From assembly GCA_963699255.1 (NCBI GenBank), contig OY969425.1, positions 1-32,000 of the forward strand: DNA of 32,000 nt. Reading direction: 5' to 3'. The notes beneath the pieces were generated by a model that was not told the origin of the DNA, did not search any database, and was given only the letters and a program-made list of their open reading frames with translations. The first letter of the stretch is position 1. Each line of letters starts with the position of its first letter. Made by a program: the position numbers and the translations under genes. This DNA comes from an uncultured bacterium. GTDB lineage: Bacteria; Margulisbacteria; WOR-1; CAVSGV01. This document shows, piece by piece, positions 14,107-21,231 of the stretch.

Positions 14107-17100
14107 ATGGTAGAACGCACTAGGGACATAAGCCATCTGCCTGTAGCGCGGTTCAATTCGCGTTCATGCGGGATCACGTCAAAAATACCCTCAATTAAAG
14201 CCGGCCGTGATGTCGTATCGTCGACTAAAAGAATATTGATCATGTTCAAGCCGGATTGTCTGGCGTACGGAATGGTCCCGGAGACGCTCCAGCTTTTAAA
14301 GAAAGGGCTTGACCGCGAAAAGATAGATGCCCGTTTTGCAGGTCTGGTCCTCCTTAATTTAACGCCTCAGCTGACGGACAGGATATATGCGGAACATGTT
14401 GGAAAGGATTGGTACGAAGGACTATTCAAACCATTCATGACCGCAAAGCACCCGAACGAAAAAGCTGTTCGTGCCCCGATCATCGCGGCAATGCTGGAAG
14501 TAAGAAATGACGCCAGCCGGGATGTTGTCAGCGTGATAAGGAAGAACGTCATCGGCCCCACCGATGTAGAAGAGTACGAAAATAAAGATGAAATAAAGGA
14601 CACATTAAGATACAAACTGATACTGGAAAAAGGATTGTTAACATGGCCGTTCCCGGAGGATCCCAAAGGCCCGAATTACAACAGGATACATTGTTCTGCA
14701 AATGAAAAAATCGCGGGAGATGAACTTTACCCGGTTTTTGGCATAAAAGGCATTTTGTCCAAACTTTATGAACCGTCCGCGGTAAAGGATGTTCTGTCAG
14801 GCTGGAGCCAGCAGGGTTATGCCGATGTCCCCGGCGTGATCAGGATACCGATTCATGAGTATCTTGGGGCTGATCCGGTGATCTTTTCCAGAAAGATCAT
14901 CAGGGCCTTCAGTGACAATGGATGCGTATATAAGGACTTTGATGAGATCAAGGCTGAACAATTGATAAGGTCATTGAATGACATGCGGGAGATGATCCAG
15001 GGCCAGGAGTTTTTTTTTAACAAGGTAACCTCTTCGATCGACCCCACAGATCCCATAAATCCTTTAAAACCAAGAGTTGTAGCAATATTTGGCGCCCCCG
15101 GAAGCGGAAAAACCACCATTTCAGACATATTAAAGAATAAAGGCGTCGTTTCCATTCTGCCTTTGACCGTGAATGAAGAAAGAGAAAAAAGCGGAGCGAC
15201 GGAATATGAGCTCAGATCAAAGACCGAAATATTGCGGATGATCCGGGAGAATGAATTCGTCGGATGGGAAATCCTTGCCGGCAATTATTATGGAATATCA
15301 AAACGGACCGCGGAAATGATCCTGAGATCTTCCGGCAAAACTTTCGCTCTGCTGGCCGGGCCAACAATTGTTTATCCATTAAGGGAAGCGCTCAAGGGGA
15401 AAGCGGACTTTTATCAGGTGATGTTCAAAGTGCCCCCGAATGACCTTGCTTCAAGGATCACAAAACGCGCGACCGTCCGGGACAGGGAAAGGGGCATCGC
15501 TTTATCCCTTGAGACTCAAAAATGGATGGAGGAAAGTTTCGGGAATTTCGACCTCATAACGGAAAACCCGAACAGCGAAAGTGAAACGGCGGCGGCTCAA
15601 AAGCTGATCGATTTTCTGGCCAAGCCCCAAAACGTAGAATTCGACCGCAAAAAAGAAGCTTCAACTCTGGCGGCTACTTATCCATATAATGCCGTGGAAA
15701 TGTTCAAGGACCAGAGACAGAGTTTCAGTAATAAGGATATTGTAACCCTTGAAAAACAAGTCATGTCCCTTGTGGGGACTACAATTGAAGCTATGTACCG
15801 CGCGGTCAGGAGCTCGCTTCCCGCGGAGACGGACCTGGGAGTCGAATTCAATGAATTTTTGTCCGGCTTGATATTGCATACCGCAAAAGTACTGGTCGCC
15901 GGTATTCAGCTTAGATCGTTCCAATATGAAGATATTACCGCGAGCCCGATCAAGTTCGGCAGGATAGGACTGTGCAGCTCAAAAGAAAGGGCGGATAAAC
16001 TTTATAAAAAGCTCAAGGATATCCAGAACAGGATGCCTCTTGAAGAAGAAATGCTTTTTGATCTTGTTCATGATATCGGGAAAATGGAGAACATCATACA
16101 ACATCCCGAAAAAGGTTATGAAATAGCGAAAAGGCTGAAAATGTTCGAAGGGTGGGGGGTTGAAGGGATAGACACCGATGTCGATCTTATTGCCATAAAA
16201 TGCTCGCATCTTATCGGCTCGTATATGTTGCCGGATAATTCGCTTATTGCCGTGGCAGATGAACTTTCCCATAAGGATGTGAAGAGCGTTCTTGCCAGGA
16301 AGGACGGGAGCGTGGACATGGAACGCATGAAAAACTTCCTGGAAAAGATATGTTTTTTCCCGTCCAAGGACGCATCCGGATACAAGGATGGATGGTTGTT
16401 AGTTCTGTTCTCTGAAGGGTATTTTGCCTTTGGAGAATGGCTTTATTCCGTATTCAGCAGGAATTCGGATAATTACGATAACGCGATAGCTGAAATTAAA
16501 AAGAGCAGCGCCGGGTCTAATATGGACAGGATAGCAAAGTGCGTTGCCATGGAGGATGCGGATGCCGATGTCAACGGGCGAACATTCGAATATTACAGGG
16601 ACAATATCGTAATGCCGAACGTCCGGGCCTGCGTTGATGAATGGGTATTCACGCAAAAAGACTGGGATCTGGTCGTGGGGAACCTCCATCATATAAGTAA
16701 ACTCCGTTATTCAACGAACCTGATATGCGATTCCCTGCAGTGGATAGGGGCAAAAGGCGAAAAGATCGAGGACCTCAATAATTACAGGAATATGTTCAAG
16801 CTTTTCGTGATCATGGCTAAATCGCTCATCGCATTCTCAAAGGATCCATCGCGGCCCGGCGATTTTGAGTTCAGGTTCACATATGACGACGGCAAAGAGA
16901 TAATGGGCCCGAAGAATTGGGGGCCGGCAATGGACTTTTGTAATGACCAGCTGGATATTTCAACCGGCGATATTGAAAAAGTCGGCAACAGCATATCAAT
17001 CGTTCCCAAAGAAAAAAGCAAGCTGCCGAACGTGGAAATTACCGAAGAAATCGTGGATGGATGCAGGTTGATCTCCTTCAAGCTTAAAGGTTATTCAGGG

Positions 17101-19656: not shown

Positions 19657-21231
19657 TTGGATTACGCGGTCAGCGTCATTAAGAACCAATTTGACAATAA
19701 AACACTGAAGGCCGGAGACAGCATTGACCTGATGAAATACCTTAAATTGCGCGGCAATTCTATGGTCCTTTGCGGAGCGCAATGGGGCGATGAAGGAAAG
19801 GGAAGAATGGCTTACCTCATGGCTTCCTTATTGGGAGCCAAAGCCGTGGTGAGATTCAACGGCGGGCCGAACGCGGGGAAAGTGGTGGAGGCTGAAAATG
19901 GAAGGGTCTTTGAATTGTGCATGCTGCCTGCCGGCGCTCTCAACCCGGACGTGGAAATATACATGGCTCAGGGAACGTACATCAACCTCAAGTATCTTCT
20001 AAAAGAGATTGACGATCTAGAGGCAAACAAAATATCCACCAGGAGGAGAGTGTTCATTGATGACAATTGCAGTTTGGTCCTTCCGTACTACGAAGAATTA
20101 AGCCGGGCAAAAAATATGGAGCGTTCAAAGGCCATATCTTTTAATGCAGGAATGGGAGAAGGAAGCACCGGCATGGGAATGGGCGGGGCGGTGGAAAGTA
20201 ATGATATGCGCCGGGGCATTAAAGTCCATGATCTGTTCGGCGATCCCAAGCAATTACTCTCCAAGATAACTAAAGATTTGATTTTGCAAGAATATAAGAT
20301 CAGGGGATTGCTATTGATAAATAATGATAGCTGGCGTTTTCCTGAAAATTACGCAAAGAACCTTTGTGATGACCTGTTGAAAATGGCGGGAGAGATCAAG
20401 CATATGAGGGCGAATGTAGGCCGAAAGATAGAAAGAACGATTCTGGCCGGCGGGAACATTGTTTTTGAAGGCGTCCAGGCGGCGCTTCTGGATAATGCCT
20501 GGGGCACATATCCAATTAATACAACATCCACCAAAACAACACCAAATAGCATTTATGATGGTTTGAACCTTGATTCAAAATATATGCTGACAAAAGTGGG
20601 TATCGTCAAAAGTTATACTGCCGTAAGAGGGAAGACCCCGCTTCCTACCGAATTAACCGGGGCAGAAGGTGATAAATTAAGTGAAGCGGGAAATGAATAT
20701 GAGGTCAGTTACAAGATAGATCCAGAAGGCACCTTAATAACGGTTTATAATCCCGACGGGAAAACGATAGCTTATGATAAAAGCAAGCGTATCGCTGTGG
20801 GGTGGCAGGATGCCCTGGTTCTTGCAGAGTGCGCAAAGACAGGATTCACGCACTTCGCGCTCACAAAACTGGATGCTCTGGACGGCTTCGATGAAATAAA
20901 GATCGCGACAGCGTACAAATACGAAGGCGATCAGGAATTAAACCCTAGTATTTATGAGGTCGAAGAACACGACGAGGCAACTTTCATCCGATCATATGTC
21001 AAAGACCCGAAAGTACTTAAACACTGCACGCCGATCTATGAGACACTCCCCGGGTGGGCGTCCGAACTTAAAAAAAGAGGGCTTGCATCAATTTCGGAGA
21101 TAAAAAAGTTTGAAGATCTTCCTGCCGCGGCGCAGAACTATGTGAAACGAATAGAAGAGATTCTGGGGCGTCCGATCGTATTTGTCTCTGTCGGCCCCAA
21201 AAAGGACCAATATATTGAAAGAAAATACTAG
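19657..21231 (+). CDS. Divergent adenylosuccinate-synthetase (PurA) superfamily ligase, 524 aa
   Basis: Retained PurA blocks: GAQWGDEGKG (P-loop), RFNGGPNAGK, GSTGMGMGGA..RRGIKVHDL, FEGVQAALLDNAWGTYPINTTS, GWQDA, LTKLDALDG, YETLPGW, AQNYVKRIEEILG, SVGP. The track start is TTG at 19657, giving about 35 aa ahead of the P-loop. Internal ATGs at aa 26 and 36 are alternatives, so the start is uncertain. Confidence 0.85.
   Translation: MDYAVSVIKNQFDNKTLKAGDSIDLMKYLKLRGNSMVLCGAQWGDEGKGRMAYLMASLLGAKAVVRFNGGPNAGKVVEAENGRVFELCMLPAGALNPDVEIYMAQGTYINLKYLLKEIDDLEANKISTRRRVFIDDNCSLVLPYYEELSRAKNMERSKAISFNAGMGEGSTGMGMGGAVESNDMRRGIKVHDLFGDPKQLLSKITKDLILQEYKIRGLLLINNDSWRFPENYAKNLCDDLLKMAGEIKHMRANVGRKIERTILAGGNIVFEGVQAALLDNAWGTYPINTTSTKTTPNSIYDGLNLDSKYMLTKVGIVKSYTAVRGKTPLPTELTGAEGDKLSEAGNEYEVSYKIDPEGTLITVYNPDGKTIAYDKSKRIAVGWQDALVLAECAKTGFTHFALTKLDALDGFDEIKIATAYKYEGDQELNPSIYEVEEHDEATFIRSYVKDPKVLKHCTPIYETLPGWASELKKRGLASISEIKKFEDLPAAAQNYVKRIEEILGRPIVFVSVGPKKDQYIERKY

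Follow-up and report, generated by a model that had tools for sequence, protein, structure and literature searches.

A PurA paralog and an NDK-kinase-HD fusion protein within a rare, conserved cluster of candidate polysaccharide-synthesis genes

What does a bacterium make with a paralog of PurA, two nucleotide-kinase-like domains fused to an HD domain, and two putative methyltransferases, all encoded side by side on one strand? The question is raised by positions 14107-21231 of a 32,000-nucleotide (nt) stretch of DNA from an uncultured bacterium (contig OY969425.1, positions 1 to 32,000; hereafter the window), which an earlier note had read as a compact, self-contained module of five genes that tailors a purine or guanine nucleotide for use as a signal, as a toxin or antiviral, or as an activated-sugar carrier for the flanking glycan genes. 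We found four genes rather than five, lying within a conserved cluster of ~22 kb, and the reading that we favour, tentatively and at a little below an even chance, is that they form the nucleotide arm of this larger cluster (window ~8400-30000), which would make and export a beta-linked polysaccharide. Among the three suggested roles, that of sugar carrier was the sole one to gain support, and the signal, toxin and antiviral roles gained none.

Gene content and conservation of the cluster

The genes in question, and the open reading frames (ORFs) of the program-made list from which they were assembled, are as follows (aa, amino acids).

14107-17121 (+): listed ORF, fusion gene, encoding a 1004-aa protein (Pfam, profile searches, AlphaFold model)
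17172-18605 (+): listed ORF, 477-aa protein with the class-I S-adenosylmethionine (SAM)-binding motif IKELGAGSGDS, weakly Methyltransf_28 (NDUFAF7/MidA)-like (Pfam)
18653-19396 (+): listed ORF, 247-aa Tgs1-like (Methyltransf_15) methyltransferase, with motif IV reading DPDW instead of SPPW (Pfam, PDB alignment)
19443-19652 (+): listed ORF, the "micro-ORF" of 69 aa, later shown to be the N-terminus of the PurA paralog
19657-21231 (+): listed ORF, the PurA-like gene as first called
19443-21231 (+): PurA-paralog gene as corrected, 595 aa after removal of one T, with an N-terminal extension of ~105 aa (Pfam, orthologue alignment)

Neighbourhoods of the fusion gene were available in nine lineages, the window included, and the eight loci with DNA (all but the P0142 locus) were entered into an all-against-all protein comparison; the contigs of two distant fusion relatives were too short for context. 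The constant partners of the fusion are a glycogen-synthase-like protein of ~900 aa, a giant protein and a GH26 or GH8 glycanase. In each of the nine lineages an immediate neighbour of the fusion is a large protein of glycogen-synthase-like or LbH/pyrophosphorylase-like type; every one of the seven loci whose flanks are long enough also encodes a glycanase of family GH26 or GH8, and most encode a protein of 1.8-2.5 kaa (thousand amino acids). Counted by family over the eight loci with DNA, the fusion was found in 8, the 900-aa family in 6 (with weaker relatives in L011 and L015), the PurA paralog in 5, GH26 in 4 and GH8 in 3.

The earlier note had treated the PurA-like, kinase-HD and methyltransferase genes as one unit. 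Elsewhere, PurA-like and fusion genes do co-localise, the former lying near the latter in six of the eight informative loci, but the methyltransferases are not constant: they vary by clade, the Tgs1-like protein being present in 2/8 loci with DNA (the window's clade only) and the Methyltransf_28-like 477-aa protein in 3/8. The PurA paralog itself is not obligatory, because two lineages lack it; some loci, with or without it, carry further nucleotide or sugar-nucleotide genes, namely PfkB (L014), SLOG/LDcluster4 (L013), NTP_transferase (L013, L015) and a GMPPB_C-like gene (P0142). The loci compared with the window were the following.

L002: two 900-aa paralogs, fusion; contig ends
L003/L004: 908 aa, NDK-like 303 aa plus kinase-HD 702 aa, 471 aa, Methyltransf_15, PurA-like 608 aa, 1775 aa, GH26
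L006: 905 aa, 898 aa, fusion, 272 aa, 316 aa, two 477-aa proteins, PurA-like 594 aa; GH26 nearby
L011/L012 (candidate division WOR-1): 1250 aa, fusion, PurA-like, 1834 aa, GH8
L013: NTP_transferase/Hexapep, LDcluster4, GT5-like 938 aa, fusion, methyltransferase, 2468 aa, GH8
L014: GH26, 1778 aa, PfkB, fusion, 832 aa, methyltransferase, GT5-like 862 aa; next to leuCD, as in the window
L015: GH94, NTP_transferase-like, 1280 aa, fusion, PurA-like, 2172 aa, GH8
P0142 locus: GH2, two LbH/GMPPB_C-like proteins, PurA-like 648 aa, fusion, two Asp/Glu racemases, three large proteins, GH26

The genes beside the fusion that are particular to one lineage include the SLOG/LDcluster4 gene (L013, 3218-4603), the PfkB-family kinase gene (L014, 8866-9822) and the two Asp/Glu racemase genes of P0142.

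The fusion family is very rare: a word index of 5.8 billion proteins gave 3 matches, and an exhaustive HMMER search of 1.84 billion representatives gave ~20 full-length relatives with 24-49% identity, together with separate NDK-only and kinase-HD-only proteins. In two scans of GTDB representative genomes there was no relative of the fusion or of the 900-aa family, the latter being an orphan with 4 matches in a large database. In agreement with the earlier note, which knew of no bacterial system with this gene set, we found no description of the set or of the fusion in full-text searches of the literature.

Of the claim that five consecutive genes share a strand, strand and coordinates stand and the count does not. 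The supposed separate micro-ORF aligns with residues 1 to ~60 of the PurA-like proteins from L003 (608 aa) and L006 (594 aa), two relatives in both of which the orthologous gene is a single ORF. The window sequence shifts frame within an A3T6C3 run (19593-19604, with T6 at 19596-19601), and removal of one T from the T6 run yields a single 595-aa ORF, colinear with both orthologues; since this deletion restores the PurA paralog, the TTG start at 19657 is spurious and the genes number four. The synthase gene downstream is split over three frames as well (21333-24383, 24371-25840 and 25825-26775, with tblastn matches colinear in frames 3, 2 and 1), the first junction falling at an A8 run (24382-24389) and a further break at ~25825-25840, and its orthologue in L003 is an uninterrupted ORF of 1775 aa. 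Thus, three apparent frame breaks lie within 6.5 kb, two of them at homopolymers (T6, A8), in genes that are intact in relatives. Homopolymer error of a long-read assembly is the most economical explanation, and true decay of the genes in the source strain is possible. A programmed frameshift in the PurA-paralog gene was considered and rejected, as both orthologues are without a shift, the site is a homopolymer, and two further breaks, of which one likewise falls at a homopolymer (A8), occur in the cluster. Independent Logan contigs of run ERR10755942, the same sequencing run, were noisy, carried other indels, and were interrupted exactly at the T6 site, ending before it and restarting after it.

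The PurA paralog and the fusion protein

The PurA-family assignment proved sound, with Pfam Adenylsucc_synt covering the entire catalytic domain (E=1.3e-92) and PurA entries of the PDB matching at E~1e-58 to 1e-60. The protein shares with PurA (EC 6.3.4.4) the fold, ~32-35% identity, the GTP P-loop, the guanine-specificity motif and the IMP contacts, the GTP/IMP residues D13, K16, N38, T129, R143, Q224, T239, K331, D333 and S414 being kept in the window, L003 and L006 proteins. It differs from PurA around a second site. H41, T128, V273, G298, T301, R303 and R305 are invariant in 116/116 ordinary PurAs, whereas V273, G298, T301, R303 and R305 are altered in all four cluster paralogs (window, L003, L006 and WOR-1), so that the loop is replaced, and the window protein reads K, R, E, Y, K and I at H41, V273, G298, T301, R303 and R305, respectively. 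In the window's clade the change of His41 to Lys comes with a loop insertion of ~25 aa. In E. coli PurA, V273, G298, T301, R303 and R305 make up the L-aspartate site, and His41 is catalytic. The description of this protein as a "rewired PurA" was therefore well chosen: aspartate-site residues are lost, GTP/IMP residues are kept, and both NCBIfam purA equivalogs are missed (NF002223, 297.5 vs 402; TIGR00184, 255.3 vs 395.55).

The N-terminal extension that further sets the paralog apart from PurA (window 19443-19760, aa 1-105) is conserved in the window, L003 and L006 proteins and is without a family match; the PurA-like protein of the P0142 locus (648 aa) is long enough for such an extension. 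Two other candidates for long PurA relatives, P0015 and P0078, were discarded as ordinary PurAs with assembly duplications. The two Asp/Glu racemases of the P0142 locus hint at use of a D-amino acid by the paralog.

The AlphaFold model of the fusion protein, built from a 22-sequence alignment (pLDDT 85), has five parts, all encoded on the + strand.

aa 34-215 (nt 14206-14751): NDK-like domain (AlphaFold model and Pfam)
aa 223-308: helical linker (AlphaFold model)
aa 320-505 (nt 15064-15621): guanylate-kinase-fold nucleoside monophosphate (NMP) kinase (AlphaFold model and Foldseek)
aa 514-860 (nt 15646-16686): large helical HD domain (AlphaFold model and conserved residues)
aa 863-993 (nt 16693-17085): small alpha/beta domain without family assignment (AlphaFold model)

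Pfam matches in the window protein are weak (NDK, 24.9 bits vs a cut-off of 27, with 39.6 in the L006 orthologue; Guanylate_kin, 24.6 vs 25.2; HD, E=0.037), and the domain calls of the earlier note, including the fusion of both kinases to an HD domain in one chain, hold at the level of the family. Guanylate_kin was matched in 17/22 members, NDK in 12/22 (E<=0.01) and HD in 4/22; a three-sequence profile matched guanylate kinases (E=2.6e-6) and NDKs (E~1e-3) in the PDB; and the top 50 Foldseek matches of the model in the PDB were all GMK or GMK-domain entries (TM ~0.7-0.76). A profile of the HD region gave no significant match in the PDB, and the motif H...HD...D is kept, with H591, H655, D656, K659 and H666 invariant in the 22 sequences and D755 nearly so.

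Compared with GMK and NDK, the protein shares the GMK fold (TM about 0.75), the P-loop and the lid arginines (G11, K14, R131, R135, R146), as well as the full NDK catalytic set including the phospho-histidine, the catalytic His and its K, Y, T, R, N, S and E partners being conserved in the window protein and, across the family, in at least 15 of 17 members. It differs in being one chain of ~1000 aa with an HD domain, in carrying insertions in its NDK domain, and above all in its base pocket. GMK positions S34, E69, S80 and D100, which recognise guanine in yeast guanylate kinase (structure 1GKY), have given way to small or hydrophobic residues (L/H/V, G/A, I/V/L and G) across essentially all 22 members, with L, G, I and G in the window protein, and R38 and R41 are also lost in the window's clade. 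Guanine-nucleotide specificity is doubtful because these recognition residues are replaced, and with it the "guanine-nucleotide" label of the earlier note. Both kinase equivalogs of NCBIfam are missed by far (TIGR03263 for gmk, 37 vs 160; ndk, 20 vs 155). Taken together, the preserved NDK catalytic set and the rewiring of the kinase and of the PurA paralog argue for enzymes that would be active on non-standard substrates. Because they lack the defining residues or fall short of the defining scores, we do not regard the cluster proteins as PurA, PurZ or guanylate-kinase equivalogs.

In L003 the NDK-like part is a separate ORF of 303 aa (8088-8999) that overlaps the 702-aa kinase-HD ORF (8980-11088) by 20 nt, and stand-alone NDK-like (~260-315 aa) and kinase-HD (~700-740 aa) proteins also came up in the exhaustive search; split and fused forms may both be real.

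As for the two SAM methyltransferase-like proteins, the Methyltransf_15 call is above the Pfam cut-off and the Methyltransf_28 call weak. Methyltransf_15 matches the 247-aa protein at E=3.5e-9 (36.9 vs 22 bits), and a full-length alignment links the protein to the human Tgs1 catalytic domain (3EGI, E=2.2e-10, residues 44-224), with which it shares SAM motif I; it differs from Tgs1 in its bacterial origin, its glycan/nucleotide context, its DPDW motif and its restriction to the window's clade. The Methyltransf_28 match of the 477-aa protein (E=0.017; 15.0 bits vs a gathering score of 23.3) falls short, its best relative reaching 22.8 bits (7e-5); only SAM motif I is clear, and a profile of the family found no sequence match in the PDB.

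Glycan-type partners and the weighing of explanations

Five large genes flank the four.

8567-11269 (+): 900-aa protein, paralog A; no Pfam match in this copy, N-terminus resembling the GT5 N-domain, middle and C-terminus weakly resembling a pyrophosphorylase and a left-handed beta-helix
11335-14031 (+): 898-aa protein, paralog B (58% identity to A); in every case the gene immediately upstream of the fusion
21357-26775 (+): giant synthase-like gene, here in three frames (tblastn, weak GT2 matches, motifs)
26776-29961 (+): 1061-aa protein, GH26 glycanase domain followed by a TPR-like C-terminal half (Glyco_hydro_26, 47.6 vs 20.2 bits; weak TPR matches)
30063-32000 (+): long ORF of >640 aa that follows a promoter motif at 30014 and runs off the window; probably another cluster member

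Family members of the 900-aa proteins in L013 and L014 pass the Pfam cut-off for Glyco_transf_5 and show weak Fucose_pyrophosphorylase/LbH matches, and the sole credible PDB match of a ten-sequence profile was E. coli GlgA (residues 3-227, E=0.016), with whose N-domain the N-terminal 230 aa align. The motifs FxEK(A/P)S and WxDxG(T/D), like the beta-helix matches, recall, in our own reading, sugar-1-phosphate nucleotidyltransferases. In contrast to GlgC (ADP-glucose pyrophosphorylase) and GlgA (GT5 synthase) of the glycogen pathway, the family is a single orphan chain of 860-1280 aa, with no recognisable GT5 C-domain, and the similarities are weak. The GT5 similarity hints at an ADP-type donor, and the GH26, GH2 and GMPPB-like matches hint at a mannan made from a GDP-type donor.

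In the giant protein, an ITEDM sequence lies 38 residues before QHHRW within the 24371-25840 ORF, followed by hydrophobic segments, and a 38-residue TED...QxxRW spacing is typical of processive GT2 synthases. Along with weak Glyco_trans_2_3 (E=1.2e-3) and PgaC (E=0.01) matches, this suggests a processive GT2 core. The TED/QxxRW motif is seen only in the window's clade, and is absent from the giant proteins of L011, L014 and L015. A small ORF on the minus strand (window 1833-2342) consists of three repeats, each with QxxRW(F/S)xGG and DQQxWYG motifs, and over its C-terminus it shares 56% identity with a portion of synthase segment 24371-25840; because this repeat ORF carries it, QxxRW in the giant-protein family may belong to a repeat unit.

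Such a candidate GT2 core, TED...QxxRW then membrane segments, is what the cluster would share with synthase-dependent exopolysaccharide (EPS) operons (cellulose Bcs, poly-N-acetylglucosamine (PNAG) Pga, Pel, alginate) and with plant CslA, whose members are beta-mannan synthases that use GDP-mannose. Further features in common with the EPS operons are a dedicated glycanase (here GH26 or GH8, GH8 being the BcsZ family), a TPR-like export or scaffold region, and sugar-nucleotide supply genes within the cluster. Unlike those operons, the cluster is without recognisable BcsB, PilZ or cyclic di-GMP (c-di-GMP) parts, and its synthase of 1.8-2.5 kaa has no Pfam match over most of its length. To our knowledge, no described EPS cluster has a supply arm that extends as far as a PurA paralog and kinases for NMPs and NDPs. 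Overall, the layout is that of a synthase-dependent EPS system that would make its own precursors.

From gene content, conserved residues and neighbourhood we infer the following enzymatic steps. The PurA paralog, using GTP, would activate the 6-oxo group of a purine NMP and then add a nucleophile other than L-aspartate. The guanylate-kinase-fold domain, its base pocket no longer guanine-specific, would take the NMP to the diphosphate (NDP), and the NDK-like domain would make the triphosphate (NTP) and also re-charge the NDP released by glycosyltransferases. The ~900-aa glycogen-synthase-like/pyrophosphorylase-like proteins would couple the NTP to a sugar-1-phosphate, after which the giant GT2-type synthase would polymerise the sugar and the GH26-TPR protein would trim and export the polymer. 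The HD domain would be a metal-dependent phosphohydrolase, possibly used for pool editing or proof-reading, the two methyltransferases would add clade-specific decorations to nucleotide or polymer, and the whole cluster would be read from sigma-28-type promoters.

Several observations weigh against the nucleotide-arm reading. The pyrophosphorylase assignment of the 900-aa family consists of weak matches (E=4e-4 and worse) and short motifs, and the AlphaFold model of the 898-aa protein (4-sequence alignment, pLDDT 35) is unusable. The GT2 assignment rests on motifs and E~1e-3 matches, a profile of the giant protein found no sequence match in the PDB, BLAST shows no similarity between the giant protein of the window and those of L011/L015 and L013, and in L006 there is no giant protein within 10 kb. 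The PurA paralog is absent from two lineages; a promoter motif precedes every one of the small genes, an arrangement that would fit independent use as well; and we know of no modified-base nucleotide-sugar, so that the tailoring part is without precedent.

If the four genes were instead a free-standing pathway for a modified or methylated purine nucleotide serving as signal, toxin or antiviral, with the glycan genes as mere neighbours, then the rewired active sites of the PurA paralog and the GMK-fold domain, the guanine-N2-type methyltransferase, the promoter motif of each gene and the presence in one relative of SLOG/LDcluster4, a nucleotide-processing family, would all fit. We consider this unlikely: across nine lineages that share only 20-30% identity, the fusion is never seen without a glycogen-synthase-like protein (in P0142, an LbH/pyrophosphorylase-like one) and a glycanase, the methyltransferases are not conserved across the family, and there is neither a meaningful PADLOC defence-model match nor an evident effector, receptor or immunity gene. 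An anti-phage defence system as such was rejected, PADLOC having returned P-loop noise only. Quite unlikely, in our view, is that these are the ordinary purA, gmk and ndk of a small genome, fused by chance and lying beside sugar-nucleotide genes. The contig is only ~1.77 Mb and the cluster chromosomal, by the 16S rRNA gene, leuBCD and thiE, distant fusion-family members keep the canonical GMK phosphate-binding motif TTRxPRxGExxGxxYxF, the NDK catalytic set is intact and the PurA paralog keeps its GTP/IMP residues, all of which speaks for such a reading. Yet the equivalog cut-offs are missed widely (purA, 297 vs 402; gmk, 37 vs 160; ndk, 20 vs 155), aspartate-site residues invariant in 116/116 PurAs are lost, as are the guanine-recognition residues in 22/22 members, and the extreme rarity of the family contrasts with the universal occurrence of housekeeping genes.

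Synthase-dependent EPS systems are commonly controlled by c-di-GMP, and some HD-type domains hydrolyse such signals. HD, NMP kinase and NDK domains would close a cycle in which a guanine-based regulator of the synthase, c-di-GMP or (p)ppGpp, is hydrolysed by the HD domain and the kinases return GMP to GTP. We rate such turnover very unlikely, as no GGDEF, EAL, PilZ or RelA/SpoT domain was present in any protein scanned, no HD-GYP signature was seen (the list of invariant residues was not checked specifically for one), the kinase pocket is without guanine-recognition residues, and the PurA paralog and methyltransferases would be left unexplained. Effectively refuted is replacement of a DNA or RNA base by PurZ-type chemistry feeding a polymerase, a reading related to the analogy that the earlier note had drawn with the phage Z-genome pathway (PurZ, DatZ, MazZ, host GMK and NDK). 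The abstract logic is shared, with a PurA homolog, an HD hydrolase and two kinase steps, but the paralog scores 87.5 bits against a cut-off of 300 with the PurZ model NF038379 and is nearer bacterial PurA, and it has lost the aspartate site that PurZ chemistry would, as we infer, require. No DatZ, MazZ or DpoZ domain was found among the scanned window proteins, the cluster has no polymerase or MazG-type gene, its HD-region profile is without a significant PDB match, and its partners are glycan enzymes. Nor is it phage-borne: phage genes are absent, as the earlier note had already remarked of structural and replication genes, the fusion has no relative among 50,697 phage records, the best phage-record matches of the PurA paralog are bacterial-type PurAs (~32% identity), and a prophage origin, also considered, drew no support from these searches.

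A more specific form of the nucleotide-arm reading, rather unlikely and with its likelihood counted within that of the broader one, is that the sugar carrier is a private, base-modified purine nucleotide. The PurA paralog would yield an N6-substituted or otherwise 6-modified NMP, the reshaped kinase pocket and NDK would raise it to the NTP, and the pyrophosphorylase-like 900-aa proteins would link it with a sugar-1-phosphate. No other donor would be accepted by the giant synthase, editing of the pool would fall to the HD domain, and some clades would methylate the base. Such a carrier would account for the remodelling of both base-reading pockets and for the different company of the fusion from lineage to lineage, be it methyltransferases, racemases, a LOG-like protein or a PfkB kinase. 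All nucleotide-sugars known to us are built on unmodified UDP, GDP, ADP, CDP, dTDP or CMP, so that this one, if true, would add a seventh kind of carrier for nucleotide-sugars, kept apart from the normal pools of the cell. Read conservatively, the cluster gives candidate division WOR-1 and related uncultured bacteria an exopolysaccharide system and an NDK-NMP-kinase-HD fusion family that have both gone undescribed. A deeply conserved and very rare cluster ties a PurA paralog without its aspartate site and a GMK fold without its guanine pocket to a putative polysaccharide synthase, and is thereby a definite starting point in the search for new carrier nucleotides or new ligations of the PurA type.

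Promoter motif and chromosomal setting

The earlier note had placed one and the same promoter motif in every spacer of 46-50 nt. This holds for three spacers, of 50, 47 and 46 nt, each of which holds GAAATTT-N14-CGATA followed by TATAT and a ribosome-binding site; there is no motif in the 4-nt gap between "micro-ORF" and "PurA" or in the 75-nt spacer before the fusion gene, and the motif is not confined to the module. In the window GAAATT-N15-CGATA has 9 matches, compared with 1.5 expected, and 0/100 shuffles reach 9.

8402-8427 and 8476-8501 (+): two motifs ahead of the first 900-aa gene, with TATAT/AGGGGAG downstream
17132-17157 (+): in the 50-nt spacer
18609-18634 (+): in the 47-nt spacer
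19395-19420 (+): in the 46-nt spacer
21301-21326 (+): ahead of the synthase gene
30014-30039 (+): ahead of the long ORF that runs off the window
2335-2360 (-): ahead of the 1833-2342 repeat ORF
3380-3405 (-): ahead of the 2461-3330 gene

Since flanking cluster genes and two minus-strand genes are also preceded by it, the motif is not private to the four genes. In the form GAAATTT(T/C)-N11-(A/G)(A/C)CGATA(T/A) it fits the spacing and the CGATA core of sigma-28 (FliA/SigD) promoters, the consensus of which consists of TAAAGTTT-N11-GCCGATAA-like boxes, and we predict a promoter of the sigma-28/SigD type; no sigma-factor gene lies within the window. The motif was also found upstream of cluster operons in WOR-1, L013, L014 and L015, and was absent from the unrelated transporter and transposase genes that neighbour the cluster in L011, the one locus checked. 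As a conserved sigma-28-like regulon signal, it could be used for finding the remaining parts of the cluster. The 289-aa protein encoded at 2461-3330 (-), with a weak Phage_TTP_1 match (E=0.05), may belong to the same regulon, given the shared motif.

The cluster is chromosomal, adjoining the 16S rRNA gene, leuBCD and thiE. It borders on an M23 peptidase-thiE-leuBDC block in the window (3303-8362) and in L003 (338-5121), and on leuCD in the distant L014 (21629-23039), an unusually stable position for such divergent genomes. The bacterial 16S rRNA gene of the window is complete (44-1561, +; Rfam SSU_rRNA_bacteria, 1537 bits).

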